This document shows, piece by piece, positions 35,183 through 53,545 of a stretch of DNA of 64,000 nucleotides. Source of the DNA: an archaeon (lineage in GTDB: Archaea > Methanobacteriota_B > Thermococci > Methanofastidiosales > NM3); assembly GCA_004212155.1 (NCBI GenBank), contig RXIG01000024.1:7853-71852 (forward strand), given 5' to 3'. The position numbers and the translations under genes are program-made. The first letter of the stretch is position 1. Each line of letters begins with the position of its first letter. The notes under the pieces were generated by a model. The model ran no database searches. It was not told where the DNA came from and was given only the letters and a program-made list of their open reading frames with translations.

Positions 35183-35390
35183 CGCCCCTCCCCAAGGAAG
35201 ATTCCGTGTGCGATTCGCTTGATGGGAAAATCTTTTCAAAACTATTTTAATTTTCTAATTTTTTTTCATTCTTTCATAACGATAAAATAAATTTTTGAAC
35301 GATAAAAAAAAGAATAATATACTCCTAAAATCACGAAATAAAAAGATTTATATGTGTTATTTGCACATCACTTGTAAGGGGGGTGGTAGC

Positions 35391-36611: not shown

Positions 36612-37070
36612 ATGGCAGCAACGGTCATCGTGGGCTGCGGCAATCTGCTACGGGGCGACGACGGATTCGGCTGCCTCGTGGCGCAGCGGCTCGCCTCCAT
36701 GCTCTCTCCAAGGCGCGACATCGAGATCGTCGATGCGGGAAGTGCCGCCGGGCAGTATATCAATCTTCTCTCAAGCAAGGACGACCCTCCATCGCTCATC
36801 GTGATCGACGCAGGCATGTTCGGTGCCCGGCGCGGCGAGCTCCGCCTCTTCACGCCAGATGAACTTGGTGCCGATGCGTGCGGACACTCGCTACACGGCT
36901 GGCCCCTTCAGACAGAGATTGCTCGCTATCCCGGCGCCGCAAAGGCCCTTCTCTGCCAGGTTGACGACGATGGAACGAAGGACATGAGCCTGGATGTGAG
37001 CTCCGATGTGCGCGACGCCGTGGCGCAAGCATGCACGATGGTGTGCCAGTTGACGGAGGTGCGCGCATGA
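36612..37070 (+). CDS. frhD: Hydrogenase maturation endopeptidase (FrhD-like)
   Basis: VIVGCGNLLRGDDGFG and IVDAG motifs. Abuts the frhA stop. Confidence 0.8.
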   Translation: MAATVIVGCGNLLRGDDGFGCLVAQRLASMLSPRRDIEIVDAGSAAGQYINLLSSKDDPPSLIVIDAGMFGARRGELRLFTPDELGADACGHSLHGWPLQTEIARYPGAAKALLCQVDDDGTKDMSLDVSSDVRDAVAQACTMVCQLTEVRA

Positions 37071-38620
37071 GCAAGCCGGTCGTCGTATGGGTGGAACTTG
37101 CCGCCTGCAGCGGATGCAGCGTCTCGTTCTTGGACAATCACGACTCGGTCGGCCGCATACTCGAAGCCATCGACCTCAGGTACGACACGCTCATTATCGA
37201 CGGACGCGACATACCCGACCATATCGACCTTGCCATCGTCGAGGGCGGGGTCGCGATCACCGACAAGCAAATAGAGCTCGTGCGCTGCATCAGGAGGCGC
37301 TCGGACGTCGTCGTGGCCATGGGCGCGTGTGCCGAGACAGGGGGCGTGCTCAACTACGCCGAGGGCAATCAGATGCCGATGCCCGAGCTTGATGCCTATC
37401 TTCCCCTGCACGACCTGATCGAGGTCGACTACGTGCTGCCCGGATGCCCACCGGCGTCGGAGGCCATCGCCAAGTTCTTCGAGGCGTATCTCGACAAGGA
37501 CTGGGCATACCTTGCACCATACAACACCATCAAGGGGAAGAGCGAGGGGAAGATACGCGACATCGTGAAGATGGGGCTTTGCGTCTCCTGCGGACTGTGC
37601 GGCGCGACGTGCCCGACAAACGCTATACGATTCGTCGAGGGCAAGCCGGTGATACGCGACGAGCGCTGCATCATCTGCGGCGAATGCTACTTCCAGTGCC
37701 CCCGTTCGTTCCTGCGGCTCGAAGAGCGCGACCCCGGCACGCCAAACGGGTCGGTGGGCCCCTATCTCGAGGCATACCAGATGCGCACCACCAGCTCAAC
37801 GCTTCGCCGCGCCGCACAGTCGGGCGGCATCGTCACCACACTGTTCACCTATGCGCTTGACAACAATCTCATCGACGGCGTCATCGCCGCCAAGAAGAGC
37901 GAGGAGAGCGTATGGATGGGCGATCCCTACATCGCGACGACGCCCGAGGAGCTCCTTGCCACCACGGGCACGAAGTATTCGGTCTGCCCGACACTCAACT
38001 ACCTGCGCGATGCGGTGACGACCCACGGCCTGGGGAAGCTTGGCATCGTCGGACTGCCATGCCAGCACGAGGCGCTCAAGAAGCTCGATGACTATCCGCT
38101 CGGACTGCGCCACATATCCGATAAGATCGCGCTCAAGGTCGGCCTCTTCTGCACATCGAACTTCAGGTACAATGCCATGACAAAGATGGTTGAGGAGGTG
38201 GGCGGCGTTCGCCCGGAGGACATACGCAAGATCGACATCGGCGCGGGAAGCTTCAACATCAGCGCCCTCACGGGCGAACTCATCAAGATCCCCCTTGACG
38301 TAGTGCACAACTACGAGCAGGAGTCGTGCAAGATCTGCCCCGACTTCACATCGGAGTATGCCGACATCTCGGTGGGCTCAATCGGCGCCGATGAGCACTG
38401 GTCGACCGTCTTCGTGCGCACGCAGCGGGGCAAGGAGATCCTCGACGGCGCGGTCGAGAACGGCTACATCGATTCGCGTGAGCTGCCGGAAAACGCGCTC
38501 AAGCTCGTCGGAAAGATCGCGGCATCGAAGCGAAAGAAGGGTGCACGATACCTTGCAACGAGGAAGGACTACGGCCTGCTCATCCCGTTCAGGTATGTCG
38601 AGACCGATAGTTCAACATGA
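37067..38620 (+). CDS. Fused hydrogenase small subunit (FrhG-like, with 2x[4Fe-4S] ferredoxin segment) and FrhB-family F420/FAD subunit
   Basis: N-terminus VWVELAACSGCSVSFLD. CVSCGLCGATCP and CIICGECYFQCP. Then FrhB-type QSGGIVTTL..IDGVI, TKYSVCP, VGLPCQ, GLFCTSNF, CKICPDFTSEYADISVGS. Single uninterrupted 517-codon ORF. ATGA overlap with frhD. Confidence 0.75.
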   Translation: MSKPVVVWVELAACSGCSVSFLDNHDSVGRILEAIDLRYDTLIIDGRDIPDHIDLAIVEGGVAITDKQIELVRCIRRRSDVVVAMGACAETGGVLNYAEGNQMPMPELDAYLPLHDLIEVDYVLPGCPPASEAIAKFFEAYLDKDWAYLAPYNTIKGKSEGKIRDIVKMGLCVSCGLCGATCPTNAIRFVEGKPVIRDERCIICGECYFQCPRSFLRLEERDPGTPNGSVGPYLEAYQMRTTSSTLRRAAQSGGIVTTLFTYALDNNLIDGVIAAKKSEESVWMGDPYIATTPEELLATTGTKYSVCPTLNYLRDAVTTHGLGKLGIVGLPCQHEALKKLDDYPLGLRHISDKIALKVGLFCTSNFRYNAMTKMVEEVGGVRPEDIRKIDIGAGSFNISALTGELIKIPLDVVHNYEQESCKICPDFTSEYADISVGSIGADEHWSTVFVRTQRGKEILDGAVENGYIDSRELPENALKLVGKIAASKRKKGARYLATRKDYGLLIPFRYVETDSST

Positions 38621-39501: not shown

Positions 39502-40083
39502 CTAAGTGCCGTCCCCGATTTTTGATGCCAAAGCGACGATACGCTTGCCAAGCGCATACGCTTCTTCGATCGATTCCACATTCTCTGCAGCCTCGCCCAT
39601 CTCGTCCGCATAGACCATGAGCCCGAGGCCGGGTATGCCGCCGATACTGGTCAGCACCGCCTTGTTGGTAAGGAGAAATCCGCTGATAGAGGCGAGCGTG
39701 GGGAAGTGTCCCCACTTCCAGGCGACCGCCACGGCCGCGCCGACCTTTCCGTCAAACGTCTTTTCCTGATGCCAGAGCACGCGCTCGCGGTCGATGAGCG
39801 CCTTGAGCGGCGCCGCGATGTTGCCGAAGTAGACGGGCGAACCGATGACTATCCCGTCCGCGTCCATCATCTTGTCGAAAATGAGCTCGGCATCATCATC
39901 GTAGGTGCACTCCTTGTGCTCGGCGCAGTACTCGCATGCCTTGCATGGATGCACCGTCTTGTTGGCCATTGGGAGGAACTCTGTCGAGGCCCCCGATTCC
40001 TTTGCCGACTTCAAGACCTCCTTGATGATGAAGTCGGTGTTTCCGCCAGATCTGGGACTTGCGGATATGCCAAGTATATGCAT
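39502..40083 (-). CDS. Iron-sulfur flavoprotein (Isf) / NADPH-dependent FMN reductase family
   Basis: ILGISASPRSGGNT flavodoxin-like start. Compact cysteine motif CKACEYCAEHKEC (Cx2Cx2Cx5C). Confidence 0.8.
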   Translation of the reverse strand: MHILGISASPRSGGNTDFIIKEVLKSAKESGASTEFLPMANKTVHPCKACEYCAEHKECTYDDDAELIFDKMMDADGIVIGSPVYFGNIAAPLKALIDRERVLWHQEKTFDGKVGAAVAVAWKWGHFPTLASISGFLLTNKAVLTSIGGIPGLGLMVYADEMGEAAENVESIEEAYALGKRIVALASKIGDGT

Positions 40084-41280: not shown

Positions 41281-42417
41281 ATGGACCTCATCCTCGATAT
41301 TGCCATACTGCTGCTGGCAGCAAAGGTCGGCGGAGAACTGACCGAGTATGCTGGATATCCTTCCATCATAGGCGAGCTCGCCGGCGGCATCATCGTTGGC
41401 ACGTCGGTGCTCGGCCTCATAGGTGATACGAGCGCGCTTGAGCGCTTTGCTGACATCGGCATCCTGCTGCTCATGTTCCTGGCAGGCGCAGAGACGAATC
41501 TGCAGGAGCTCACGAAGTCGGCAGGCAGCTCAGTTGCCGTGGCGATATCAGGAGTCGTGTTCCCGTTCATGCTCGGGTATCTTGCTGCCGTCGCGTTCGG
41601 ATACGGGGCATCGGAGGGCATGTTCCTCGGCGCGGCCCTGACGGCGACTTCGGTGAGCATCACTGTGCGCGCCCTGTTTGACATCGAAAAGCTCAATACA
41701 AGTAAGGGCATGACCATCCTTGGTGCAGCGATCATCGACGACGTCATCGGCGTCATCATCTTCACACTTGTAGTCGGACTGGCTGTGCAGGGTGAGCTCT
41801 CGGCGCTCCGCATCATCGAGGTGATAGGGGTAATCATTGCGTTCTTCCTGCTCTCGCACTTCGTGGTGCGCAGAGCCATGCGCCGCCTCTTCAAATATTC
41901 TCGCATGCTCAGGACCGAGGAGGGTACGGAAACGTTCGTCATCGTCTTCGTGCTCCTCTTCGCCCTCGTCGCAGAGGAGGCCTACATCGCAGGCATCACG
42001 GGCAGCTTCCTGGCAGGCATCATGCTAGCGCAGACGCATGACCGAAACACGATCATAGAAAAGACGAAGACGGTCGGCTATGCGTTTTTCATCCCTCTCT
42101 TCTTCGCCTTCGTGGGGAGCCGCGTCGACATCTGGCAAATTCTTGATGTCGGGGCGATAAGTGTGGTGGTGATCGTCTTTGCCATCGTAGGCAAGATGGG
42201 TGGCAGTGCCATCGCATGCAAGGCGATCGGCATGAAGATCAGAGACGGACTCGAGATAGGCATCGGCATGACCCCCCGCATGGAAGTGGCCATCGTCATC
42301 GCGAACGCGGCACTGACAGAGGGCGTCTTCGCGGTGCCACTCTACACGTCAGTCGTGATGATGAGCTTTGCGACGACGCTCATCACGCCGCCGCTCCTCA
42401 AGAAGTTCTTTACGTGA
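41281..42417 (+). CDS. Cation:proton antiporter (CPA2/Kef-NapA type)
   Basis: About 11 TM. GGELTEYAGYPSIIGELAGGII and DDVIGVI motifs. Confidence 0.8.
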   Translation: MDLILDIAILLLAAKVGGELTEYAGYPSIIGELAGGIIVGTSVLGLIGDTSALERFADIGILLLMFLAGAETNLQELTKSAGSSVAVAISGVVFPFMLGYLAAVAFGYGASEGMFLGAALTATSVSITVRALFDIEKLNTSKGMTILGAAIIDDVIGVIIFTLVVGLAVQGELSALRIIEVIGVIIAFFLLSHFVVRRAMRRLFKYSRMLRTEEGTETFVIVFVLLFALVAEEAYIAGITGSFLAGIMLAQTHDRNTIIEKTKTVGYAFFIPLFFAFVGSRVDIWQILDVGAISVVVIVFAIVGKMGGSAIACKAIGMKIRDGLEIGIGMTPRMEVAIVIANAALTEGVFAVPLYTSVVMMSFATTLITPPLLKKFFT

Positions 42418-44110
42418 ACTCCTTCGGGGTGAGCGTGAGCGTGCGAATGTTCTGCACAGGTGTGCCCACGGTGATATCGCATCCCGAGGCAAGAATGAGT
42501 CCCTTGCCGCCCATGTCCTCGATGCATCGGCGCGCCTCGGTGCGTACCTTGTCGGGGGACGACATGTAGAGCGTCTCGAGTGCCGATACGTTGCCGATGA
42601 TAGCGAAGCGGTCGCCAAGCATCCGTCTCGCGAACGAGAGGTCGACATGCGAGTCGATGCTCACGGCATCGGTGTTGAGGCCGCGGAACAGGTCAAGCCT
42701 GTCGCTGATGTTTCCGCAGATGTGAAGCGCCGTCTTGTCGTCGCTTCGGTTGAAGTGGCCAAAGACGTCGTTGATGAACGGAAGCGAGAACTCCTCGAAG
42801 ACCTCGGCGGATATGAGGTCGCCCGATGCGACGGGGTCGCAGAAGAGATATGCCTCGATGCCCGCCTCCTGCATGAGACGGGTGAATGAAAGCGTGAGCT
42901 CGGTGCAGTACTTGAGCAGTTTGAACGCAAACGGCCTGTTCACGAAGAGGTCCATGAGGAGATTCTGGGTGCCGCGAAGCTCGGCGGCCAGGGTAAACGG
43001 CATCGCGAGCGTAGCATACGTGAAGCGAGATCCATCATTGAGCTCGTTTATCGCAGTTGCCGCCTCGATGGCCGAACTGATGCGCTCATGCGACTGCAGC
43101 TCGGGCATCTCCAGCGAATCGATGTCCTCCGCGCGCTTGAGCAAAGGCTCGATGGTCACCGGATTACCCTTCGCCTCAATACGCACGTGCCCCCCTGCCG
43201 CTTCGATGGGGGCGAGCCAGTCCCATGCGCACTCGTAGGCGTCAAAGCCGCAGTTACGGACCTCCTTGTACTGGGTCTTTGCGGCTAGTTCTGGATGTGC
43301 GATCGACTGACCCACCGTCATGCCCGCGTGGTGCAGCGCCCAGTAGCCCTGAAAGGGGGGGGCGGTGGACACCATGTCAGGCACATCGCCACGAAGCGTC
43401 ATCATGACGCGCTGGTGGGGCGAGACCTTGCGCTTCTTTCCCTTCAGTGTGGCAGCTCGCTGCTTGACGAGCTCGTGCGAGAGTTCCACGGTCTTGACCG
43501 CGTCGTCGGCGTAGCCGTCTGCGCCGATGGTGCGGGCGAACTCCTCGGTGACGGGGGCCCCGCCCACCATGACCTTGACGTCGTCGCGGCGCTCGAGAAA
43601 GAGGTTGACAACATCGATCATGTTCTCCATGCTCGTCGTCATGAGCGCCGAGACGCCGACGATGTCCGCATCGACCTCGATGGCCTTTTCAAGGAACGTC
43701 TCGGCAGGCGTGTCGACGCCGAGATCATAGACCTTGAACCCACCCAGCTCAAGCAGCATCTTGACCATGTTCTTTCCGATATCGTGGAAATCGCCCGTGG
43801 TCACGCCGAGCACGACGGTGCCCTCGTTGTGGGAGTTGTTGTTCTGCGAAAGATAAGAATGAAGGATATCAATGGCCGCGTTTGCGGCGCGAGAAGAGAG
43901 CAGGACCTCGGGGATGAAGATCTTTCGCTGTTCGAACAGCTCGCCGAGCACCTGCATTGTGTCATGACAGGCAAACGAGAGGGCCTTGCGCACGTCGACG
44001 TCATGCTCGATGACCTGTCGGGCGGCATCTACCGCACCGTCAACATCGCCGTGGATGATGCTCCTGCACAGAGCACCCAGGATCTCGTCGTCCCGTTTCA
44101 TCATGGTCAC
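42410..44110 (-). CDS. Fusion protein: corrinoid-binding module + URO-D-family (MtaA-like) methyltransferase domain
   Basis: N-terminal B12 cap helix domain and GDFHDIGKN...SALMTT...GGAP. C-terminal about 350 aa with PPFQGYWAL, LHICGN and ASGCDI. Architecture as in MtsD/F/H-type fusions. Confidence 0.8.
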   Translation of the reverse strand: MTMMKRDDEILGALCRSIIHGDVDGAVDAARQVIEHDVDVRKALSFACHDTMQVLGELFEQRKIFIPEVLLSSRAANAAIDILHSYLSQNNNSHNEGTVVLGVTTGDFHDIGKNMVKMLLELGGFKVYDLGVDTPAETFLEKAIEVDADIVGVSALMTTSMENMIDVVNLFLERRDDVKVMVGGAPVTEEFARTIGADGYADDAVKTVELSHELVKQRAATLKGKKRKVSPHQRVMMTLRGDVPDMVSTAPPFQGYWALHHAGMTVGQSIAHPELAAKTQYKEVRNCGFDAYECAWDWLAPIEAAGGHVRIEAKGNPVTIEPLLKRAEDIDSLEMPELQSHERISSAIEAATAINELNDGSRFTYATLAMPFTLAAELRGTQNLLMDLFVNRPFAFKLLKYCTELTLSFTRLMQEAGIEAYLFCDPVASGDLISAEVFEEFSLPFINDVFGHFNRSDDKTALHICGNISDRLDLFRGLNTDAVSIDSHVDLSFARRMLGDRFAIIGNVSALETLYMSSPDKVRTEARRCIEDMGGKGLILASGCDITVGTPVQNIRTLTLTPKEFT

Positions 44111-44158
44111 AGCTTCTTGTTTATACCAACTCCTTAAAAAGGTAATTCAGGATAGAGC

Positions 44159-45172
44159 TCAAAGTCCGTGCGCATACGACGTGTAGGCGCGTATGTTGTC
44201 AAGCGGCGTCTTGGGCGATATGCCGCAGCCCGGGGCGAGGATGTCCGCGCCCTTCTCGATGCATGAGCGCGCCTCGTCGACCACGCGCCGAGCGTCGCCG
44301 AAGAGGAGCGTGTCGATGGGATTGATGTTTCCCACGAGCGCAGCGGAGCGGACCTTCTCGCGCGCAACAGCCATGTCAACGAGGTGGTCAATCGATATGC
44401 CCTTGGCACCGATGCGCTGCATATCATCAAGTATCTCAGTGGTGTCCCCGCAGATGTGGAGCACCACCGGCACGTCGAGCGAATCGATGACGGCATGCAG
44501 CTGTGGTCCTGCAAGCGAGGCGAACATCTCGGGTCCGATGAGCTCGGTTGTCGCCGAAGGATCGATGAGCGTGATGACATCTGCCCCGTTGGCCACGAGG
44601 TGGCGGGCGTATGCGACGCACACGTCGGTGGTGAACGCGAGCACGCGTTCGAGGAAGTCGTAATCATCGAACGAGTCGATGAGGAGCGTCTCGATGCCGC
44701 GTATCTGCCCGGCCAGTGTGAACGGCCCGACCACTCCGCCGATGACGGGAAGCCCATGCCGGTCCGCGCGTTCCGAGAGCAAGCCAAGCGCCGTTGCCAC
44801 CACGGGCATGCGCCCTGTCTTGGAGGGATCGGGAACCGAGAGCGAGTCGAGCGCATCCTTGTCAGCGAGCACGGGGCGTTCCACCGAAGGCTGCGACGTG
44901 TCTGCGCCGCTGTGGATCGAGCATCCCAGCGCCTCCGCCTCCACGGTGAGGCAAAACGGAACGCGCACGCTCTCGATGTCGGCACACTTCCATGCTGCGT
45001 AGGCGAGGTCCGCCATCTTCTTCGCATCGTAGTGCGCATCGGGCCAGCGAGCACCGCTTCGCTCCATCATCTCGAGCGTCGCCGTCTGGAGCGGACATGC
45101 GCACGATGGGCGGTCTGCCGGTTCGCCGTCGAGTATGGCAAGCAGCCGTTCGCGGGAGGAGAGCTCGGGCAT
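44159..45172 (-). CDS. Methylcobamide:CoM methyltransferase-like (MtaA/MtbA family, URO-D fold)
   Basis: SSRERLLAILDGEPADRP, ARWPDAHYDAKKMADLA, Zn-ligand context LHICGDT and APGCGI. ATG 45172 lies 4 nt after the upstream stop. Confidence 0.75.
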   Translation of the reverse strand: MPELSSRERLLAILDGEPADRPSCACPLQTATLEMMERSGARWPDAHYDAKKMADLAYAAWKCADIESVRVPFCLTVEAEALGCSIHSGADTSQPSVERPVLADKDALDSLSVPDPSKTGRMPVVATALGLLSERADRHGLPVIGGVVGPFTLAGQIRGIETLLIDSFDDYDFLERVLAFTTDVCVAYARHLVANGADVITLIDPSATTELIGPEMFASLAGPQLHAVIDSLDVPVVLHICGDTTEILDDMQRIGAKGISIDHLVDMAVAREKVRSAALVGNINPIDTLLFGDARRVVDEARSCIEKGADILAPGCGISPKTPLDNIRAYTSYAHGL

Positions 45173-45176
45173 GGTA

Positions 45177-46205
45177 TCACTTCCGCGCGACGACCGTCTT
45201 GAGCGCCTCGACGTTATCCATCGGACTTCCCGGTGCGATATCGCATCCAGCACCCAGCACGAACGCCTTGCCGTCGGTCTTTTGTATGCACGCCTGCGCC
45301 TCGCGCACGACCTGTTCGGCCGTCCCGTTAAAGAGCGTCTCTGCGGGATTCACGTTGCCAAGCAGCGTGGGCGAGTCTCCAAGCGTCTCCTTCGCATAGG
45401 CGAGGTCGACGAGGAAGTCGAGCGAGAAGACGTCAATGTCGAGCTCGCCGATGGTATCGAGCCTGTCGGACGTGTTGCCGCAGATGTGAAGGAGCACGTA
45501 GGCGTCGGCATCGCGAATGGCCTTGATGGGTGCCTTGAGATAGTGTTTCGAGAACGTCTCGAAGTCCTCTTTTGATATAAGGTCCGCCGAAGCGGTGGGA
45601 TCGCAAAGAATGACGCCGTCAACACCCCAGCTCGTGAGATATTCGCTGTAGCGCACGACGACGTCCTCTGCAAACGAGAGCATGTCGTGGACGAAGTCAG
45701 GCTCGTCGTACATGTCAAGCATGAGATTCTCGACGCCGCGAAGCTCGCCTACGAGCGTGAACGGCGATACGAGCGTCGTGTAAAGGAACTTGTCGCTTCC
45801 CAGCTTGTTCCTGATGATGCTTGTCGTGTGCATTGCGCTCTGAAGGCGGTAGTCCTTCTCAGGATCGGGGACCTCGAGTGAGTCGAGAACTGAGGGTGAG
45901 GTAACGACATGAGTTGCCGTGCTTGGGTTCCCGACATCCGGCATGTCCACCGTGCAGCCCACAGCCTCCACAGGGGCGAGCCAGTCCCACATCGTCTCGA
46001 AGCCGTCAAAGGCGCAGCGCTCCACCGCTTTGAGCTGGGCCGAAGCGGCAAGCTGCGGCTTGTCGATCGACGTCCTGACGGGGACGCCGGCCTGCTGCAG
46101 CGCCCAGTAGCCCTGAAAGGGGGGCCCGATGGGCACCCTGTCGACGGGCTCGCCGTTGATGGCAGCCACGAATCTGTCGCGAGATGAGTGCGACACCATT
46201 GTCAT
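45177..46205 (-). CDS. URO-D-family methyltransferase, paralogue of the fusion C-domain (candidate substrate:corrinoid MT1)
   Basis: PPFQGYWAL, WDWLAPVEA, LHICGN and GAGCDI. About 50% identical by eye to residues ~230-566 of the 42410-44110 product. Confidence 0.7.
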   Translation of the reverse strand: MTMVSHSSRDRFVAAINGEPVDRVPIGPPFQGYWALQQAGVPVRTSIDKPQLAASAQLKAVERCAFDGFETMWDWLAPVEAVGCTVDMPDVGNPSTATHVVTSPSVLDSLEVPDPEKDYRLQSAMHTTSIIRNKLGSDKFLYTTLVSPFTLVGELRGVENLMLDMYDEPDFVHDMLSFAEDVVVRYSEYLTSWGVDGVILCDPTASADLISKEDFETFSKHYLKAPIKAIRDADAYVLLHICGNTSDRLDTIGELDIDVFSLDFLVDLAYAKETLGDSPTLLGNVNPAETLFNGTAEQVVREAQACIQKTDGKAFVLGAGCDIAPGSPMDNVEALKTVVARK

Positions 46206-46837
46206 GCCCCCACCAACTTACCGATGAGCTTGACCGCCTTTGCCGCGTCGTCGGCGTAACCGTCTGCACCGATCGTGTCAGCATAGCTCTGTGAGACGGC
46301 GCCACCACCAATGATGATCTTGATGTTGCCATCGACCTCCCTTACGGCGGCGATGACGTCGGGCATGCCCACCATGCTTGTCGTCATGAGCGATGACATG
46401 CCCACGACCTGTGGAGATGAGTCCTTGACCGAGGCGACAAAGGCATCCTTTGTGACGCTCTTGCCAAGGTCGACGACGGTGTAGCCCGCTGCCTCGCACA
46501 GCAGCTTGACGAGGTTCTTCCCGATGTCGTGGATGTCGCCCTCGACGACGCCCAGCACCACGGTGCCCGATGACTTCGAATCGACCTCGAGGTGCGGCTT
46601 GAGGATTTCCACTGCCATGTTCATCGCCCGCGCTGAGCGAAGGATCTGTGGCACGAACACCTTGCGCTGCTCGTAGAGGTCGCTTACGATCTGCATGCCC
46701 TTGTTCAGGCCCTGCTGTATGCACTCGTACGCATCGAGTTCCATGGATATCGCATCATGTGCCGTGGCGGTGGAAAGCTTCTCATCACCGCTAACGACCG
46801 CATCGGTCAGTTTTTTGTAAACATCTTCCTTTTTCAT
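46202..46837 (-). CDS. Corrinoid (B12-binding) protein
   Basis: Cap domain plus GDIHDIGKN, SSLMTTS and GGGAV. ATGA overlaps at both ends (46202-46205, 46834-46837). Confidence 0.85.
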   Translation of the reverse strand: MKKEDVYKKLTDAVVSGDEKLSTATAHDAISMELDAYECIQQGLNKGMQIVSDLYEQRKVFVPQILRSARAMNMAVEILKPHLEVDSKSSGTVVLGVVEGDIHDIGKNLVKLLCEAAGYTVVDLGKSVTKDAFVASVKDSSPQVVGMSSLMTTSMVGMPDVIAAVREVDGNIKIIIGGGAVSQSYADTIGADGYADDAAKAVKLIGKLVGA

Positions 46838-48729
46838 TTTATCACTTCCTTCATCGTTGCAAGGTCGAAATGGTCCTCGTAGAGGGAGGGTTCGATCCCG
46901 ACGGATGCGAGCATCTCCCTGGTAGGATATCCGTCCCTCGTCCATCCCCTCATCCTGTAGCATTCCTGCATCATGTCGTCAAATGGCGGCGCCTTACCCA
47001 TGCGGGCGCCATCGGGTGCGGGCGTGAGGAGCTTCTTTGGAAGCACGTCGTATGCCGGCCCCTTCCCGTCGCGTATGTTGACGAGACGCTGGAAGTTATA
47101 GATGCGCTCGCCGCAGCGCGAGAGGTCTTCAAACGACCATCCCCAGCCGGTCATGGCATTGAGCGCGTCCAGATAGCGAGATATCGACGCCTCGCCCTCG
47201 ACGAACATGAACGCGCAGAGGACCGCCGATCCCATGATCGCGCCGAAGTTCTGATGGATGACGGCAAGTCGCGTCTTGTCCCCGACCTCGAAGAAGCGCG
47301 GTTTTTTTGTCACGCCGTACTCGGGGAGGAGGAATCCGCCGATCTCGGTCTCCTCGGGGCATCCTCGGTAATGGCATGCGCCGCGGGTCCCTGTCGCATA
47401 GTTTACCGAGAGGCTGTAGCACAGGCGCGGGTCGTGTCCGGGCACGTCGAGTCCCCGTACATGGACCGCATGCCCTTCCTTACCGAGGGTGGCCCCGAGC
47501 GTGGCGGCACCCTCGGCCATGATGCTCCCTATGCCTTCCCGTTTGCCTATGAGGTCGATGAGGTGGAGGACAATGGCAGGATCTCCCCAATCGATTCGCA
47601 GGTCCCCGATGACGTGAGGTGGAAACCACCCCTTCTCGTAGGCTTCCATGGCAAGGGCTATGGCCGAGCCCGCAGAGATGGTGTCCATCCCGTAGCGATT
47701 GCACAGATCATTAGCCTTCGCTACGGCGCGCACCTCGCGGACGAGGCAGTTCGCCCCTAGCATTGCCAGAGTCTCGTACTCGGGTCCTGGTCCATCGACC
47801 CCATAGGACGGGTGCTCAAAGGAGACATGACGGTGACAGGCAAGCGGGCAGCTGAGACAGGCCTTGGGCTTGACGTTGAGCGCCTCGTTGTAATGGGGCG
47901 TCTCCATCTCCTTGCCCTCCTCCGTCCAGCTGCTGCCGTCCCAGTTCTTCTTTGGAGTGTTGTCAAGGGCATTATAGGTGGCAAAGCCACCTGGTGTGCC
48001 CCAGGCGCGAAGCTCCTTGCCCCGGTCGCTTCGCACCATCGTCCTGGTGATATCCTTCCTGATGTCGTCAAGTGCCCCTCCATCGAAATACGAAGGTGTC
48101 GCGCTCCCCAAGAGCGCGATGCCCTTGAACTTCTTGGAGCCCAACACAGCGCCGATGCCCGACCGGCCAGCGTAGCTGTGCTTGTCGACGACGACGCAGG
48201 CGAAGCGGACGAGCCGCTCCCCTGCCGGCCCTATGGCAGCGACACTCGCCTTCTTGTTCGTGTCGCTTTTCATGGCGTCAATGGTATCGAACGTCTCGAG
48301 CCCCCATAAGGCCGAGGCGTCCCTGAGCTCGACCGCGCCGTCCTCTATCCATAGATAGACGGGTGATGGCGAGCGTCCCTCGACGACGATGGCGTCGAGT
48401 CCGCATCCGCGAAGGGACGGCCCGAAGCTGGCACCCGCCGCCGAATCGCCAAAGGTGTGGGTCATAGGAGACTTGGAGACTAGCGACCATTTGGCGGATC
48501 CGGGGATGCGCGTGCCCTGGAACGGTCCTGTGGCGAAGACGACCTTGTTTGCAGGTTGGAATGGGTCGACGTGGGAGGGAACTTCATCGAGAAGGATCTT
48601 TGCGCCCATTCCCGCTCCGCCGAGAAACACCTTGTAGAACCGTTCGTCGGTGTGCTCTATATGGGTCCGTCCCTTCGTGAGGTCGACCCTCAACACCTTG
48701 TTATGGTAACCAGACGACAACAGGATCAC
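46834..48729 (-). CDS. Aldehyde:ferredoxin oxidoreductase (AOR) family tungsto/molybdopterin enzyme
   Basis: GYHNKVLRVDLTKG, LGGAGMGAKILLDE and FATGPFQGT N-domain pattern. About 630 aa. Cys ligand region CLSCPLAC. GTG start. Confidence 0.8.
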   Translation of the reverse strand: MILLSSGYHNKVLRVDLTKGRTHIEHTDERFYKVFLGGAGMGAKILLDEVPSHVDPFQPANKVVFATGPFQGTRIPGSAKWSLVSKSPMTHTFGDSAAGASFGPSLRGCGLDAIVVEGRSPSPVYLWIEDGAVELRDASALWGLETFDTIDAMKSDTNKKASVAAIGPAGERLVRFACVVVDKHSYAGRSGIGAVLGSKKFKGIALLGSATPSYFDGGALDDIRKDITRTMVRSDRGKELRAWGTPGGFATYNALDNTPKKNWDGSSWTEEGKEMETPHYNEALNVKPKACLSCPLACHRHVSFEHPSYGVDGPGPEYETLAMLGANCLVREVRAVAKANDLCNRYGMDTISAGSAIALAMEAYEKGWFPPHVIGDLRIDWGDPAIVLHLIDLIGKREGIGSIMAEGAATLGATLGKEGHAVHVRGLDVPGHDPRLCYSLSVNYATGTRGACHYRGCPEETEIGGFLLPEYGVTKKPRFFEVGDKTRLAVIHQNFGAIMGSAVLCAFMFVEGEASISRYLDALNAMTGWGWSFEDLSRCGERIYNFQRLVNIRDGKGPAYDVLPKKLLTPAPDGARMGKAPPFDDMMQECYRMRGWTRDGYPTREMLASVGIEPSLYEDHFDLATMKEVIK

Positions 48730-48748
48730 CTGTAAAAAAAAGAAGGGC

Positions 48749-50026
48749 CTAGAGGGCCCTGTCCAACAGTTGTACCAGGTCTAGCGTCGGTATGTTCTTG
48801 TTCGCCGCGCGCGCACCGTCGTTGAGGTTGGTGTGGCAGAAGGGGCAGATTGACACGATCGCCTCGGCGTTCTTCTCCTCTGCCTCGTCCACGCGTCGCT
48901 TTGACGTGTTCACCGCGAAGTCCGGATAGTCGGTCTTCACGCCGCCACCGGCGCCGCAGCACAGCGAATCGCGGCGTATGCGTTCGAACTCGACGAAGTC
49001 GATGCCCGGTATCGCGCTCAGGAGCTCGCGGGGCTGGTCGTAGAGCGAATGACTCTGGTCCTCATCGCCCGTTCCTTCCTTGTAGCGGTGCAGATGGCGT
49101 CCCGTGTGGCACGGGTCGTGATAGGTAACGCGCATGTTGACCTCCTTTTCCGGCCTCCACTCGCCCGCCTTGTACTTCTCGTGCAGGAAGTCGACGAGGT
49201 GCATGATGCGTATGCCGTCGATGTAGTCCTCGTATCCTTCCACATCTGGATAGTCCTTGTTGAAGCAGCGGAAGCAGCCTGCGCACGCAGTGACGATCGT
49301 GTTCACGCCGTGGTTTTCATGCATGTCCTTGAACGTCTCAAGCGATTTCTTGGCAACGCGCTGGAACTCGTTTTCAACACCCATCCTGCGCACGGTCGAA
49401 CCGCAGCAGACCTCCTTGTCGTAGAGATAGCCGAAGTCGATGCCGAGCTTGTTGAGGACATTGACGGTGGAGACGGCGATGCAGCGGTTGTTGGAGTTGT
49501 AGGCAGGCGTGCAGCCGGCATAGTAGAGGACCTCTGCGTCCTCCTTGTTGAGGTTTTTGACCGGCGTGTCCTTGAACTCCTTGGTCCACCTCGTTCGCAT
49601 CTTGCGCGAGCCGGTGTAGGGGTTGTCGTTGTTTCGCATCGACTTGATGAGCACCTCTCCGGACTCGGGCCCAAGGCCCTTGTCCTGCAGCTCGAATCGG
49701 ATGTGCTGCAGGATCTCGGCGCCATAGGCGCGTATGGGCTTCCAGGCGTCCTCGTCGTTGATGTAGCACTGCTCGGCGCAGGCACCGCATAATGTACAGT
49801 AGGAGAACATCTCTGCCACGTCGTCGTCCCACTCGAGCTCGCCGTTGCGCAGGGCCCGATAGACCTGCATCCTCCCCTGGAGCGTATAGTCAAGAAACGA
49901 CCTGTCAAGGTACGATGGGCACACGATCTCCCTGTTGCCCTCGTGCTGTGTCCTGCAGGTGCCGCATCCTATGCAGCGCTCGGGCAGATTGTTCTCCTTT
50001 AGGATCTTTTCTATGTCGAGTTTCAT
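48749..50026 (-). CDS. Fe-S oxidoreductase with two [4Fe-4S] motifs and two CCG domains (HdrD/GlcF/GlpC-like)
   Basis: CIGCGTCRTQ and CTLCGACAEQC. CCG motifs VCCGST and LCCGAGGG with PCH and CPFC. Confidence 0.8.
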   Translation of the reverse strand: MKLDIEKILKENNLPERCIGCGTCRTQHEGNREIVCPSYLDRSFLDYTLQGRMQVYRALRNGELEWDDDVAEMFSYCTLCGACAEQCYINDEDAWKPIRAYGAEILQHIRFELQDKGLGPESGEVLIKSMRNNDNPYTGSRKMRTRWTKEFKDTPVKNLNKEDAEVLYYAGCTPAYNSNNRCIAVSTVNVLNKLGIDFGYLYDKEVCCGSTVRRMGVENEFQRVAKKSLETFKDMHENHGVNTIVTACAGCFRCFNKDYPDVEGYEDYIDGIRIMHLVDFLHEKYKAGEWRPEKEVNMRVTYHDPCHTGRHLHRYKEGTGDEDQSHSLYDQPRELLSAIPGIDFVEFERIRRDSLCCGAGGGVKTDYPDFAVNTSKRRVDEAEEKNAEAIVSICPFCHTNLNDGARAANKNIPTLDLVQLLDRAL

Positions 50027-51484
50027 TTAGATGCCCCCTATCTGGCCCCGATTCATGATGCGGTACGGATCGATGAGGTCCTTGATCTGTTTGATGAACT
50101 CCACCGTGTTCGGGTCCGCATGCGACATGTTCACCCTGCTGTTTGAGTATGAGGGCTTGTAGACGACCGCCCCGAGCTCGACCTCCTTTTCGGCGATGGC
50201 CTTGAGCAGCGCGCGGTCGCGCTCCTTCTCCTCCTCCGATGCGTCCTTGTGCTGGAAGACGTTGAAGCGAAGGATCGTCTCGTGGCCGTTGTCCATCACG
50301 CGATTGTACTGCATGATCGGATGCTCTGGCTCGACGTAACCAAGCTTCTCGTAGACCTTCTCGACAGCACGGTAGATCTCGGCCTGCTTGAACGGGGGAG
50401 CGTAGCAGCCGGCCCACTCACCCGTGCCGCCCCTGTTGCCGTCCATGTCGTTTGAGAGCTGCATGGGCAGGTCGTGGAAGTACTGCATCTGATTGCCTGG
50501 AGGAAGCTTCGGGAGGCCCTCCTCCTCAGGCTCTATCTCGATGCCCTTGTCCTCCTTGCATATCTTGTAGAGCTCCTCGATCTTGCCATCCATGATCTTC
50601 TCGTTGGCCGCCTGGAGCACCACCCAGCTCTCGAGCTCTGGCTCTCCCTTTTCGCGGCTGAACGGGAGCTTGATGCCCGCCTCGCAGCGCCCCCACGCCC
50701 AGTTGTTGGACGCGATGTCGACGGCGATCTGCTGCTTTGCGATGTTCATCTGATTGAGGTAGCCGTGCTCGACCGTGTCTGCGTTGACGTAGAACGCCTG
50801 TTGCTCGGCAGGTTGCTTGTAGATCTTAACGGATGCCTTGGTGACGATGCCGGTCGTTCCGGCCCATCCTATGAAGAGGCCAGCCAGGTCGATGATGGGC
50901 GCCCTCGTGCCCCAATATGGCGAGATCATGTGGTTTCCCGTCTTGATCAGCTCGCCGTTTGGCAGCACGACCTCCATGCCGGTGATGTAGAAGCTGCCGT
51001 CGCCGTGGGCAAGGCTGACATCCATCATGCCGCAAAGCAGATACCCTGTCACGACGCCGCTTGACGGCGGAGAATAGGTATATGCACCGATGTAGCCCGG
51101 TGCGCGCTTCATCATCTCGCGCTTGAAGTCGGCCCACGTGAGGCCTCCATCGACAACGGCATAAAGACCATCGGTGTTGATCTCCTCGACCTTGTTCATG
51201 CGTCGCAAGTCGAGGATGATGCCTCCATGGTGGGCATTGCACATGCCCCCAGTCGTAAGATTGCACACCCATGGAATGACGTTTACCTTGTTCTTCCATG
51301 CGATGCGCATGATGGCCTGGACCTCCTCGGTGGAGCCGGGCATGAGGACGGCGTCGGGATGCCCGTTCGGTTCGACGCTCGTCCAGTCATTTGAATAAGC
51401 GTATCGGGTGGTCTTCTTTTCCGATATATACTTCTGGCCGACCACGCCTTCTAGCTCTTTGAATACATTTCTATCTAAAGTCAT
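50027..51484 (-). CDS. FAD-linked oxidase (GlcD / D-lactate dehydrogenase family)
   Basis: FAD_binding_4-like N-half (PDAVLMPGSTEEVQAI...VIPWV..TTGGM) and FAD-oxidase C-half. GGAGGTGG SD before ATG 51484. Confidence 0.75.
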   Translation of the reverse strand: MTLDRNVFKELEGVVGQKYISEKKTTRYAYSNDWTSVEPNGHPDAVLMPGSTEEVQAIMRIAWKNKVNVIPWVCNLTTGGMCNAHHGGIILDLRRMNKVEEINTDGLYAVVDGGLTWADFKREMMKRAPGYIGAYTYSPPSSGVVTGYLLCGMMDVSLAHGDGSFYITGMEVVLPNGELIKTGNHMISPYWGTRAPIIDLAGLFIGWAGTTGIVTKASVKIYKQPAEQQAFYVNADTVEHGYLNQMNIAKQQIAVDIASNNWAWGRCEAGIKLPFSREKGEPELESWVVLQAANEKIMDGKIEELYKICKEDKGIEIEPEEEGLPKLPPGNQMQYFHDLPMQLSNDMDGNRGGTGEWAGCYAPPFKQAEIYRAVEKVYEKLGYVEPEHPIMQYNRVMDNGHETILRFNVFQHKDASEEEKERDRALLKAIAEKEVELGAVVYKPSYSNSRVNMSHADPNTVEFIKQIKDLIDPYRIMNRGQIGGI

Positions 51485-51527
51485 GATAGTTCCACCTCCC
51501 ACATGGGGAAAAAGAAAAAAAGAGGGG

Positions 51528-52877
51528 TTAGTCCTCGACCACCCCTGTAGGTACGTCAATAACGTACTGGTCCGCGTACCTGCTGCGTTCCCAGCGAAGG
51601 AAGAGCCAAACGACAAATCCGATCGCGAAGTAGGCAAAGAACATGTACCACAGCGTACTGTCGAAGTACTTGAACGTGTAGTACGTCATCACTAGGCCGC
51701 ATCCCACTGCGAGCACACCCGTTGCGCTTCCGCCTGGCACCTTCCATGGACGGCGCCACTTGGGGAATACCCTGCGCATCTGAAGGAACGAAAGACTTGA
51801 GATGGTATATGTTATACCAACGCCGATCGCCATCAGGGTAAAGAGATACTCCAGCCACTGCGTGCCTGAAATGGCAATGAAAAACAGTGTGACGGCAAGT
51901 ATCGACCAGTTGGCAGTCGATGGTACGTGCTGCTTGTTGAGGTTCCCGAACTGACGCGGCAGGATGCGGGAACGTCCCATGCTGTAGAGCAGCCTGGAGC
52001 CTGCAAGCCAGAATCCGTTGAGGCAGGTCGCAAGCGCGCAGAAGTTGGCCAATGCTATCGCATACTGGGCCCATGTACCGTAAAGCGCGCCCGCGATTGT
52101 GGCGCTTACCATCGGCGTTTCGTTGACGATGGTGTCGAACGGAAGCATCGCTGCGTTCACGATGCAAAGACCGCCGTAGAACGCGATACAGAAGATGATG
52201 GAGCCAACGATAAGCCTCCAGTGCTTCTCGGTCGGGTATTTAGACTCCTCGGCGAACTGCGGGATGATCTCGAATCCGAAGAACATCGTCACCATGAGGG
52301 CCGTAGCAGTAAAGAATCCGTCCCTTCCTGTTTGGAAGAACGGGCTCCAGTTAGCCGTATCGAACGTCGGGTGGGACACGAAGAGGACCACGATTGTCAC
52401 AGCAATAACAACGAGTACCAAGAACATCAAGAACTGTGCTGTAGCGCTGATGATGAGCTCACGAGAGTTCATTATGGCAAAGCCCACGGCAAGAATAGCT
52501 GCGATAATCATCATGGAGGTCAACGGCATGCCGGGCCACCACAGATATTCAACGATCCACATGAGTGCCATGAGCTGGAACGAAAGCACTGTCGTGTACG
52601 AGAGCAAAAGTGCCCATGAGGTCCAGAACGAAGCCTCTTTGCCAAACGCGTTTTGTATAAAGACAAAAGGCCCACCGACGAATGGGAGCATGGCGGTCAT
52701 TTCACCATACACCAATCCTATGGGGATACACATCAATCCGACGACCAAGAACGAGAGAGCTATAGACGCGCCGGTAAGTGAGATCCACCATTGCATCATC
52801 ACTAACCAGGGTCCTATGACGGCAGCTGTCGCCATGGCGAACAGATACCAGCTCCCAAGTGACTTTTGAAGTCGCAT
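51528..52877 (-). CDS. APC-superfamily (amino acid/polyamine/organocation) permease
   Basis: 12 TM. N-terminal LGSWYLFAMATAAVIGPW and GEMTAMLPFVGGPF motifs. Confidence 0.8.
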   Translation of the reverse strand: MRLQKSLGSWYLFAMATAAVIGPWLVMMQWWISLTGASIALSFLVVGLMCIPIGLVYGEMTAMLPFVGGPFVFIQNAFGKEASFWTSWALLLSYTTVLSFQLMALMWIVEYLWWPGMPLTSMMIIAAILAVGFAIMNSRELIISATAQFLMFLVLVVIAVTIVVLFVSHPTFDTANWSPFFQTGRDGFFTATALMVTMFFGFEIIPQFAEESKYPTEKHWRLIVGSIIFCIAFYGGLCIVNAAMLPFDTIVNETPMVSATIAGALYGTWAQYAIALANFCALATCLNGFWLAGSRLLYSMGRSRILPRQFGNLNKQHVPSTANWSILAVTLFFIAISGTQWLEYLFTLMAIGVGITYTISSLSFLQMRRVFPKWRRPWKVPGGSATGVLAVGCGLVMTYYTFKYFDSTLWYMFFAYFAIGFVVWLFLRWERSRYADQYVIDVPTGVVED

Positions 52878-53187
52878 TGTGTCTCCGCCGCTTCCAGTGT
52901 CACTGATAGAATCACCTAGAAAAGGTAAAAAAAAGGCGCTTTATATTGTTTTTCGAACCTATTGCAGAAGGTTGCAACATTTAATCAATATATGAAAATA
53001 ATTGTGTTTTTTGTTGCAAAAATAAAATATAATAATTCTATTGAAACTTTCAAGGACATGAATTTTACGTTATTTTTTCCTCCGGTAACACATATGCATA
53101 TATAAGCTTATCGGTTTGAAAAGAATCACTTGGCGGAAGTGGAACGTATGCGAGCCGCGTCCTGTGTTGGGTCGAGACGAGAAAAGA

Positions 53188-53194
53188 TTTAAAT
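53188..53194 (+). promoter_or_regulatory. TATA box of SRP RNA gene
   Basis: TTTAAAT lies about 20-25 nt upstream of the predicted 5' helix. Confidence 0.45.
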
Positions 53195-53209
53195 GCATGC
53201 CTGCGAGAG

Positions 53210-53545
53210 GTGATGCGACTAGGTCGGGGAGGTAGGCGTGCCCTGTTACCAGAAACCGTCTAGATGCTGGGACCGAAGCCCTCGGGGCGTCGACTGAACG
53301 TGGCAAAGGTGCTGCCTACGCCGATGAAGTCCTGTCCTGCTTGATTGGTGGGGCGCGAGGCCCTTTTGGAGGAAAGGGTTAACGCGCCTTGTCTCCCGAA
53401 CCCCGCCAGGTCCGGAAGGAAGCAGCGGTAGGGAGGACATTCAATGCTTGCGGGATTGCAGGATGGAGAACGGGGCAGTCCTCTCTTTGCCACCGGATGT
53501 CGGCCACCCGCGGGCGCGTCGTGACCATCACAAACGTTTTTTAAC
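53210..53545 (+). ncRNA. Signal recognition particle 7S RNA
   Basis: Helix-8 signature CCCGCCAGGTCCGGAAGGAAGCAGCGGTAGG at 53402-53432. Long-range pairing GTGGCAAAG/CTTTGCCAC. 5' GTGATG..CGAC pairs with 3' GTCG..CATCAC. No credible ORF. Ends are approximate. Confidence 0.8.

Follow-up and report, generated by a model that had tools for sequence, protein, structure and literature searches.

We analyzed a 64,000-nucleotide (nt) stretch of contig RXIG01000024.1 (assembly GCA_004212155.1), hereafter the window, to which all coordinates without another label refer. Eight closely packed genes on its minus strand, at 42410-52877, make up one operon, in which a flavin adenine dinucleotide (FAD) flavoprotein, an iron-sulfur protein with two CCG domains and a tungsten-type aldehyde:ferredoxin oxidoreductase (AOR) are encoded among a permease, a corrinoid protein and methyltransferases. 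An earlier note on this DNA had proposed that the trio could give a methanogen an H2-independent electron input, from a hydroxy-acid or an aldehyde into ferredoxin and/or the heterodisulfide of coenzymes M and B (CoM-S-S-CoB). Our leading, though tentative, interpretation is that the operon is a methyl-donor module in which the flavoprotein and its HdrD-like partner form a heterodimer that, together with the AOR, oxidizes the skeleton of the methylated substrate, with CoM-S-S-CoB as the most attractive, unproven acceptor. The operon's genes in order of transcription, followed by the features around them, are these (protein lengths in amino acids, aa):

51528-52877, minus strand: APC-family permease, 449 aa, first gene of the operon (AA_permease_2, E 1.5e-35)
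50027-51484, minus strand: FAD flavoprotein of the vanillyl-alcohol oxidase/p-cresol methylhydroxylase (VAO/PCMH) superfamily, 485 aa (P0002), matched only by PF01565
48749-50026, minus strand: iron-sulfur protein with HdrD architecture, 425 aa (P0001), with Fer4_8 and two CCG domains
48730-48748, minus strand: spacer of 19 nt between the CCG and AOR genes, with a T9 run read in the sequence
46834-48729, minus strand: tungsten-type AOR, 631 aa from a GTG start (P0003), with AFOR_N and AFOR_C
46202-46837, minus strand: corrinoid protein, 211 aa, with B12-binding and B12-binding_2 domains (TIGR02370, 190 bits)
45177-46205, minus strand: URO-D/MtaA-CmuA-family methyltransferase UROD_a, 342 aa (URO-D, E 1.4e-70)
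44159-45172, minus strand: MtaA-like methylcobamide:CoM methyltransferase UROD_b, 337 aa from the ATG at 45172 (PRK06252, 371 bits)
42410-44110, minus strand: corrinoid-domain::URO-D fusion, 566 aa, last gene of the block (B12-binding_2, B12-binding and URO-D)
39502-40083, minus strand: FMN_red/flavodoxin-like protein, 193 aa, loosely associated with the block (PF03358, E 5.8e-29)
52878-53211, minus strand: AT-rich divergent intergenic region, ~330 nt 5' of the permease gene, in which TATA-like AT-rich stretches were read
53212-53525, plus strand: archaeal signal recognition particle (SRP) RNA gene (Rfam RF01857, 208 bits), divergent from the operon and bounding its upstream region

The AT-rich region, which is likely the operon's promoter region, and the SRP RNA gene upstream, together with a Na+/H+ exchanger gene that converges on the fusion gene downstream, delimit the unit to 42410-52877. 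The flavoprotein gene starts with an ATG preceded by GGAGGTGG, and its TAA stop leads without a gap into the ATG of the CCG gene. From its GTG start, the AOR gene begins 19 nt after the CCG gene, as the earlier note had stated (an alternative TTG start three codons further in would lengthen the spacer to 28 nt), and its TGA stop overlaps the corrinoid-protein ATG as ATGA, in agreement with the overlap described there. The host genome (1.49 Mb, 90% complete) belongs to the Methanofastidiosales and encodes McrA, and Mch and MtrA were not found in it at this completeness. The host therefore fits methyl-reducing methanogenesis, the premise from which the proposal about the trio had started. Close relatives of the window proteins are labelled Methanofastidiosia or 'Methanomicrobia archaeon', and the host's class in our genome sample also includes ~47 large complete genomes from one other family. 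Methanofastidiosa are said to depend on organic carbon sources, reportedly from the WSA2 genomes studied by Nobu and colleagues in 2016.

The flavoprotein and CCG protein could be read as a canonical glycolate or lactate dehydrogenase (GlcD with GlcF, or Dld with an HdrD-like protein), as the annotation 'glcD/hdrD' implies and as the automatic names of their relatives, 'glycolate oxidase' and 'heterodisulfide reductase subunit D', would have it. The earlier note had likewise placed a GlcD-family FAD enzyme next to the CCG gene; the stop/start adjacency is there, and the GlcD type is not, except at the level of the superfamily. The match to PF01565, the PCMH-type FAD-binding domain (E 2.3e-21), is a feature that defines the superfamily only. 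The NCBIfam glcD model (TIGR00387) reached 76 bits against a cut-off of 567.9 and aligned over positions 1-198 of 413, which is the FAD-binding half alone, so 'GlcD-family' holds only as a superfamily label. A profile built from 24 members of the flavoprotein's own family matched PCMH and bacterial vanillyl-alcohol oxidases over their full length (1.5e-61 to 9e-60), and more weakly mouse D-lactate dehydrogenase (D-LDH; 5.7e-47), 9qgz (7e-41), which is an arthropod D-LDH deposited as glycolate oxidase, and LctD (1.8e-37). The AlphaFold model (pLDDT 87) has a two-domain fold with a cap domain like VAO/PCMH and superposes on both the VAO/PCMH and the D-LDH groups. In Foldseek searches, it aligned to eugenol oxidase, vanillyl-alcohol dehydrogenase/VAO and PCMH with TM-scores (TMq) of 0.82-0.85 and root-mean-square deviations (rmsd) of 3.3-3.6 Å, and to the mouse D-LDH (mLDHD) with a TMq of 0.78 and an rmsd of ~4.7 Å, yet the E-values put mLDHD first.

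We then compared active-site residues. E. coli GlcD, our named reference, carries HAGDGNMH at 386 and GEHG at 429, and the His-His-Glu of HxGDGNxH/GEHG forms, as in the mLDHD and D2HGDH structures, the metal-binding triad of D-2-hydroxyacid dehydrogenases. Aligned to this triad, the window flavoprotein keeps the first His (H401) and has R406/N408 and Y442-K443 at the other positions, so that two of the three residues are absent; the two motifs occur in none of the 24 family members nor in the two paralogues encoded by the host. Y442-K443 align with PCMH Tyr473-Arg474, which form the phenolate-binding triad together with Tyr95, whose equivalent sits in an insertion that the family lacks. PCMH Tyr384 and VAO His422 are the covalent FAD attachment residues, and Tyr384 aligns with a non-conserved profile position, leaving the covalent-FAD residue without a counterpart in the family. 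Covalent FAD attachment is no absolute requirement of the 4-phenol oxidizing subfamily of VAO/PCMH enzymes. A maximum-likelihood tree placed the window flavoprotein clade as sister to a Methanomethylicia clade (100/99), followed by Asgard proteins (100/100), and grouped E. coli GlcD with the host paralogue FAD_C22, split from the window clade by 100/99 branches.

From these comparisons we conclude that the flavoprotein is not GlcD-type and is best described as a member of an uncharacterized clade within the VAO/PCMH superfamily, where it probably oxidizes a CH-OH group. As the enzyme lacks two of the three GlcD residues, falls outside the GlcD clade and lies nearer to PCMH/VAO, the hydroxy-acid suggested in the earlier note becomes only one candidate donor.

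The CCG protein (PF02754, E 2.6e-34) combines two CCG domains with Fer4_8. Its translation contains CIGCGTC...CP, CTLCGACAEQC, EVCCGST and SLCCGAGGG, so that the two ferredoxin motifs and the VCCGST and LCCGAGGG motifs that had been noticed in the 425-aa protein are all present. The ferredoxin-domain cysteines (C18/21/24/36 and C77/80/83/87) and the CCG-domain cysteines (C172/207/208/248/251 and C306/356/357/394/397), 18 cluster cysteines in all, are invariant in 23 relatives, and the protein has the architecture of HdrD, an N-terminal 2x[4Fe-4S] ferredoxin domain followed by two five-cysteine CCG domains. Curated models ranked in the order TfrB, LdhH, GlpC, HdrB and GlcF, all below their cut-offs (NCBIfam: TfrB, C-terminal part, 173 bits against 385; GlpC 93 against 278; GlcF 50 against 333).

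The earlier note had asked for the CCG protein to be placed against HdrD, GlcF, LutA and GlpC. We built a tree with E. coli GlcF, GlpC and YkgE (LutA), the host TfrB and host HdrB-like proteins as landmarks, and the window protein fell far from GlcF, LutA and GlpC: these three lie outside a clade formed by the window protein, TfrB and HdrB-like proteins (99/84, 100/96), although they are long-branch rows whose exact positions are unsure. The clustering with glycolate or lactate oxidase subunits that the earlier note had named as grounds for refutation was thus not seen. Closer to the window protein are the host TfrB and a CCG protein linked to HdrA/MvhD. As sister group (97/97) it has a large family of proteins 436-445 aa long, which come from Desulfobacterota-like bacteria, Thermoleophilia and Methanofastidiosa and among which is a paralogue (44% identity) encoded on contig C20 of the host, and the partner CCG proteins of Methanomethylicia and Asgard archaea form another clade. 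A canonical glycolate or lactate dehydrogenase would share the CCG domain architecture, which is the same as that of GlcF, and could appeal to the top Foldseek E-values of mouse D-LDH. Both subunits speak against it: the flavoprotein retains only the first His of HAGDGNMH/GEHG, scores 76 bits where the glcD cut-off is 568, is ranked by its family profile with PCMH/VAO over D-LDH and leaves GlcD to group with the C22 paralogue, and the CCG protein is far from GlcF, YkgE and GlpC. We regard this dehydrogenase as highly improbable.

The resemblance to TfrB raises a different alternative, that the CCG protein acts on a substrate-derived thiol or disulfide rather than on CoM-S-S-CoB, or that the pair runs in the manner of TfrAB. 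In one version a methylated disulfide would be reduced before demethylation, or the mercapto product of S-demethylation would be handled; in the other, electrons from CoM-SH and CoB-SH would reduce a carbonyl at the flavin. HdrB-type CCG clusters are disulfide/thiol catalysts, as established from HdrABC structures (5odc was matched), the best NCBIfam match, TfrB, oxidizes thiols and does not reduce the heterodisulfide, and a TfrAB pair is encoded in the same genome, 15 kb away. The methyltransferases of the operon are of the Zn/thiol type (MtaA/MtsA-like), and homologous flavoprotein-CCG pairs occur in organisms expected to lack CoM and CoB. We nevertheless consider this alternative unlikely, since a VAO/PCMH-type flavoprotein tied to thiol chemistry has no known example, the AOR would be left without an obvious role and the reductive direction would use up the scarce reductant of a methyl-reducing methanogen.

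A complex of flavoprotein and CCG protein was predicted with an interface score (ipSAE) of 0.89, compared with 0.00 for the best of three controls. In a benchmark, 58 of 80 solved complexes and 2 of 110 mismatched pairs reached 0.89, which is a rough guide only, since our own alignments were used. The runs agreed in at least 87% of contacts, with partner pLDDT of at least 85, and in the modelled interface the ferredoxin domain of the CCG protein (residues 13-94) docks on the flavoprotein. The modelling supports a flavoprotein-CCG heterodimer and a putative electron path from FAD through [4Fe-4S] clusters to the CCG domains.

The third enzyme of the trio is an AOR-family enzyme, as had been noted (AFOR_N, E 2.9e-74; AFOR_C, E 2.3e-111), and by its closest solved structures it is of the Pyrococcus AOR type: its best solved relatives are 9mqx (1.5e-117) and P. 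furiosus 1aor (1.8e-113), ahead of FOR, WOR5 and BamB. It keeps the CLSCPLAC (CxxCxxxC) and EYE motifs and has the features of AOR sensu stricto.

The earlier note had pointed out that the trio is embedded in a set of methyltransferase genes. Among these, UROD_b is by sequence a clear MtaA/MtbA-type methylcobamide:CoM methyltransferase: it exceeds the PRK06252 cut-off of 244 bits and matches M. mazei MtaA (4ay7) at 1.1e-67, with HICGD and PGCGI aligned. UROD_a (196 bits) and the fusion (170 bits) remain below the TIGR01463 cut-off of 235, and the URO-D half of the fusion groups with UROD_a in the alignment as a separate subfamily. The HxC...C zinc motif is kept in all three URO-D domains and in the Methanomethylicia orthologue (LH(I/V)CG(N/D) and GC(D/G)I, compared with MtaA 4ay7), reading LHICGN...GCDI in UROD_a. 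The UROD_a subfamily has 149 database relatives, and the named ones are mostly from Methanofastidiosia, Methanomassiliicoccales, Methanosarcinaceae and Methanomethylicia, with one metagenome-assembled genome (MAG) of Deltaproteobacteria. Where UROD_a occurs elsewhere without the redox genes, it is linked to an APC permease (L048) or a corrinoid protein (L046). UROD_a is a candidate substrate:corrinoid methyltransferase, and we infer that substrate specificity lies with a core of permease and UROD_a, to which the redox trio is an add-on. The permease, which heads the block in relatives too, matched NCBIfam models at subfamily level only (amino-acid, BcaP and ethanolamine permease models), all below cut-off. 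An S-methyl donor is favored by analogy, from the Zn/thiol-type fold and the MtsD/F/H-like fusion. We give little weight to a methoxy-aromatic donor, with O-demethylation, vanillyl-alcohol-type oxidation and AOR: MtoB/MtvB-type enzymes (47-48 kDa; PMC8630106) exceed the window's methyltransferases in size, the permease belongs to the amino-acid type and the flavoprotein lacks one of the phenolate-binding Tyr residues.

Oligo-T runs follow the stop codons of the CCG gene (48730-48748) and of the permease gene (51485-51527), each followed by a Shine-Dalgarno sequence, and a T-rich spacer with a Shine-Dalgarno sequence recurs at the CCG/AOR junction of two relatives (L019, 6786-6825; L020, 11285-11330). 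Such spacers could serve as partial terminators of the archaeal kind and adjust gene expression inside the operon. In an RNA library from an oil field (X1), three contigs were identical to UROD_b, AOR contigs were 96-99% and permease contigs ~95% identical to the window genes, and a 749-nt contig of 92% identity spanned the CCG/AOR junction, giving a weak hint of operon expression and of read-through across the oligo-T spacer. RNA runs X2-X4 were rejected as operon evidence: they shared only 33-nt conserved pieces (a corrinoid motif and SRP RNA) of other organisms' abundant contigs.

The eight-gene order is identical in other assemblies (L019/L029 and L020-L022), whose CCG proteins and flavoproteins are 77-80% identical to those of the window and whose flanks are different. 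The same order in independent genomes indicates that the operon arrangement is not due to chance, and the conserved block supports a functional tie between the trio and the methyltransferases. Whether the FMN_red gene belongs to the module is uncertain: a homologue is inserted after the AOR gene in L019 (34% identity) and lies 1.3 kb downstream in L020 (62%), compared with 2.3 kb downstream in the window. The next-closest flavoproteins (45-47% identity) all come from Candidatus Methanomethylicia, where five genomes have a divergent permease gene next to AOR, ThiS-like, flavoprotein, CCG and UROD_a-orthologue genes, with a corrinoid gene added in L030. We searched five module-bearing genomes for McrA, four from Methanomethylicia and one from a relative of the window's organism, and all encode it. 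The AOR of Methanomethylicia shares only ~30% identity with that of the window, indicating that a different AOR lineage was recruited, which argues for a needed aldehyde step. The module behaves as an accessory unit shared horizontally among methyl-reducing methanogens.

We also found related gene sets elsewhere in the host, in bacteria and in Asgard archaea. In the host genome a CCG gene follows each of three FAD_binding_4 genes, and ~11 CCG proteins and four full AORs are encoded in all. On contig C20 (C20:105074-110713; L035:7074-12713), a paralogous flavoprotein-CCG pair is followed by genes for a ferredoxin of 111 aa, a protein of 410 aa whose only AOR domain is the N-terminal one, and a BPL_N-like protein. 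Clusters with 38-66% identity to these five genes occur in large bacterial genomes (L043, L044), where they add a GntR regulator, an MtaA-like URO-D gene (294 bits with the MtaA model), an arginase-family gene, an aldehyde dehydrogenase and cytochromes, and in another Methanofastidiosa assembly (L045) the C20-type set lies directly upstream of hdrCBA-mvhD. The C20-type set is apparently an uncharacterized module that has been transferred. In Asgard genomes, the pair stands beside 2-hydroxyacyl-CoA dehydratase-family genes and coenzyme A (CoA) ligases. The flavoprotein/CCG pair accompanies aldehyde-oxidizing and MtaA-family genes in three separate arrangements. The third host pair (C22:77746-80297; L036:5746-8297) is followed by NfeD and Band-7 genes; its flavoprotein has a recognizable FAD-oxidase_C domain and groups with E. 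coli GlcD, yet lacks HxGDGNxH/GEHG. An arginase-family gene near the module in L020, L023, L043 and L044 was considered as a further member and dropped because the host homologue is on another contig (C9).

Several additional loci came to light in these searches. Between the CCG and MtaA-like URO-D genes of the bacterial clusters is a gene for a 484-aa protein (L043:8511-9965) with no Pfam or NCBIfam match, whose homologues in the host, 46-48% identical, are at C14:972-2399 and C15:15036-16433. Past the end of the window, at C1:73017-76359 (L038), a TfrAB-like pair is encoded next to a malic enzyme gene, consisting of a 519-aa TfrB-type protein (Fer2_3, Fer4_8 and two CCG domains) and a 596-aa fumarate-reductase flavoprotein. 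A dense Hdr-like cluster at C14:38974-49788 (L037) encodes a 1026-aa double HdrA-like protein, FlpD/MvhD, a 389-aa HdrD-like protein, a 762-aa HdrA::MvhD fusion, a 676-aa four-CCG protein, an HdrC-like ferredoxin and a 352-aa CCG protein. Within the window itself, at 35295-38620 on the plus strand, a [NiFe]-hydrogenase large-subunit gene is followed by a single 529-aa open reading frame in which a small-subunit domain, ferredoxin motifs and an FrhB module are joined.

The surroundings of the bacterial and Asgard pairs suggest a third alternative, in which the pair and AOR are an ordinary catabolic route from an alcohol or hydroxy-acid through an aldehyde to an acid, with no link to the heterodisulfide or to H2 independence. 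Such a route would feed ferredoxin or another carrier and supply carbon skeletons, and it would neighbor the methyltransferases because both use the same imported compound. The 2-hydroxyacyl-CoA dehydratase-family and CoA ligase genes beside the Asgard pair are consistent with this, as are the aldehyde dehydrogenase, arginase-family gene, GntR regulator and cytochromes beside the bacterial one, and the flavodoxin-like FMN_red protein whose gene accompanies the window's block could be the acceptor. The reported dependence of Methanofastidiosa on organic carbon also speaks for such a route. Against an ordinary catabolic role, the methanogen copies strictly keep both CCG motifs, the core recurs specifically in two unrelated mcrA-bearing lineages whose flavoproteins are sisters and UROD_a is nearly restricted to methanogens. 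We find this alternative possible but rather doubtful.

A functional coupling of methyl transfer to oxidation of the substrate's skeleton is well supported. For the methyl-donor module, gene content, conserved linkage, intact cofactor motifs and the modelled heterodimer lead to the following scheme, which is conditional as to the class of substrate, the acceptor and which way the electrons flow. The top score of the CCG protein against TfrB, which acts on CoM/CoB thiols, also speaks for it. The APC permease would import a polar methylated compound, which most likely carries its methyl group on sulfur and has a skeleton resembling an amino acid or amino alcohol. The Zn-dependent UROD_a would move its methyl group to the corrinoid protein, the corrinoid::URO-D fusion would do likewise for a second substrate, and the MtaA-like UROD_b would transfer the methyl group to coenzyme M. 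The flavoprotein/HdrD-like heterodimer would oxidize a CH-OH group of the skeleton, passing electrons from FAD through two [4Fe-4S] clusters to the two CCG clusters, and the tungsten AOR would oxidize the resulting or a derived aldehyde to the acid while reducing ferredoxin. Electrons at the CCG site would most plausibly reduce CoM-S-S-CoB, so that the substrate pays for the reduction of its own methyl group. The further-reaching claim, that skeleton electrons reach CoM-S-S-CoB through a new kind of dehydrogenase and AOR and thereby sustain H2-free methanogenesis in members of the Methanofastidiosales and Methanomethylicia, seems to us improbable as yet.

A number of observations weigh against this scheme. 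The CCG protein's clade and the flavoproteins that partner it come chiefly from bacteria and Asgard archaea, where CoM-S-S-CoB is not expected; family membership therefore does not imply heterodisulfide reduction, and by this distribution the ancestral acceptor of the clade is something other than CoM-S-S-CoB. The trees of the two subunits disagree, the window CCG protein being nearest to the C20 paralogue and the bacterial clade and not to the Methanomethylicia CCG proteins, which suggests that the Fe-S partner was replaced within the Methanofastidiosales module. The flavoprotein fully matches neither the D-2-hydroxyacid nor the 4-phenol oxidase active-site pattern, and a corrinoid activase gene is absent from the eight-gene block. 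The conserved oligo-T runs after the permease and CCG genes could divide the operon into separate transcripts, and the RNA evidence consists of assembled contigs from a library that may contain DNA, where uncovered stretches of X1 are no sign of silence. The module is also rare: of the two further genomes of the genus one has an orthologue, the other genera in the class sample (81 genomes) yielded none, and on the Methanomethylicia side 5 of the 61 genomes of the class sample have it.

Digesters, sediments and oil reservoirs widely harbor Methanofastidiosales and Methanomethylicia, which have been modelled as methanogens in need of H2 and a simple methyl compound. If our scheme is true, they would gain an internal electron source, and more compounds would count as methane precursors, since a transferable operon would link methyl transfer with oxidation of the skeleton of the same substrate. 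The analysis also corrects an annotation, in that at least this 'glcD/hdrD' pair is evidently no glycolate or lactate dehydrogenase. The pair is part of a large uncharacterized flavoprotein/CCG family whose genes are found repeatedly in linkage with those of the AOR and MtaA types, in archaea as well as in bacteria. The operon offers a defined, expressible set of eight proteins for a direct test of the long-standing HdrD/GlcD hypothesis.

Among known systems, E. coli GlcDEF resembles the window pair in encoding an FAD_binding_4 flavoprotein and a Fer4/2xCCG subunit side by side; the window lacks a GlcE homologue, and both of its subunits are phylogenetically remote. TfrAB is likewise a soluble flavoprotein with an Fe-S subunit whose two C-terminal CCG domains act on CoM/CoB thiols, but TfrA is of the fumarate-reductase type (PF00890) and not VAO/PCMH, and TfrB has an extra 2Fe-2S domain. 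PCMH, VAO and eugenol oxidases give the flavoprotein its best full-length profile matches and TM-scores, and PCMH Tyr473-Arg474 have their aligned counterpart in its Tyr-Lys; these enzymes use a cytochrome c subunit or O2, whereas the partner of the window flavoprotein is an HdrD-like protein.

The methyl-transfer half of the operon is comparable to MtsA/MtsB, MtsD/F/H and MtpCAP of Methanosarcina and to MtaA, which share with it URO-D-fold Zn methyltransferases, a B12-binding corrinoid protein and a corrinoid::methyltransferase fusion. By their sub-cut-off scores, UROD_a and the fusion domain form a subfamily apart from MtaA/CmuA. Unlike the window operon, none of these known systems is known to be linked to a flavoprotein/CCG pair or to AOR. 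The Mto system of Methermicoccus shengliensis (PMC8630106) is similar in its corrinoid-dependent demethylation of a complex organic donor and in an operon with transporters; it differs in that MtoB is a 47-48 kDa MtvB-type enzyme and MtoA passes the methyl group to tetrahydromethanopterin (H4MPT), whereas the window enzymes have a size of 38 kDa and are of the MtaA/CmuA type, and the host genome yielded neither Mch nor MtrA.

The closest precedents are the HdrD/GlcD pairs that are proposed as CoM-S-S-CoB reducers in Methanomethylicia (Verstraetearchaeota), Bathyarchaeia and Archaeoglobus (PMC6421429; PMC6783470; bioRxiv 10.1101/2022.08.18.504445). Since a heterodisulfide role for such pairs was already proposed, the central idea of the earlier note is not new. 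As in the window, an FAD_binding_4 gene adjoins a Fer4 + 2xCCG gene in Mcr-bearing methyl-reducing archaea, with the same proposed role, and one of the loci examined here (L031, Methanomethylicia) comes from a MAG series named in one such paper. Within the accessible text, those pairs are not described as linked to AOR, an APC permease or URO-D genes; in the literature searched, as far as its text was accessible and with key 2015-2016 papers outside it, neither the non-GlcD nature of the pair, nor the AOR/permease/URO-D module in two phyla, nor the related bacterial module is described. Where those papers treat the flavoprotein as GlcD or D-lactate dehydrogenase, the window flavoprotein departs from GlcD in active-site residues, model score and tree position, and the window pair belongs to a rare accessory operon rather than to a core complex.

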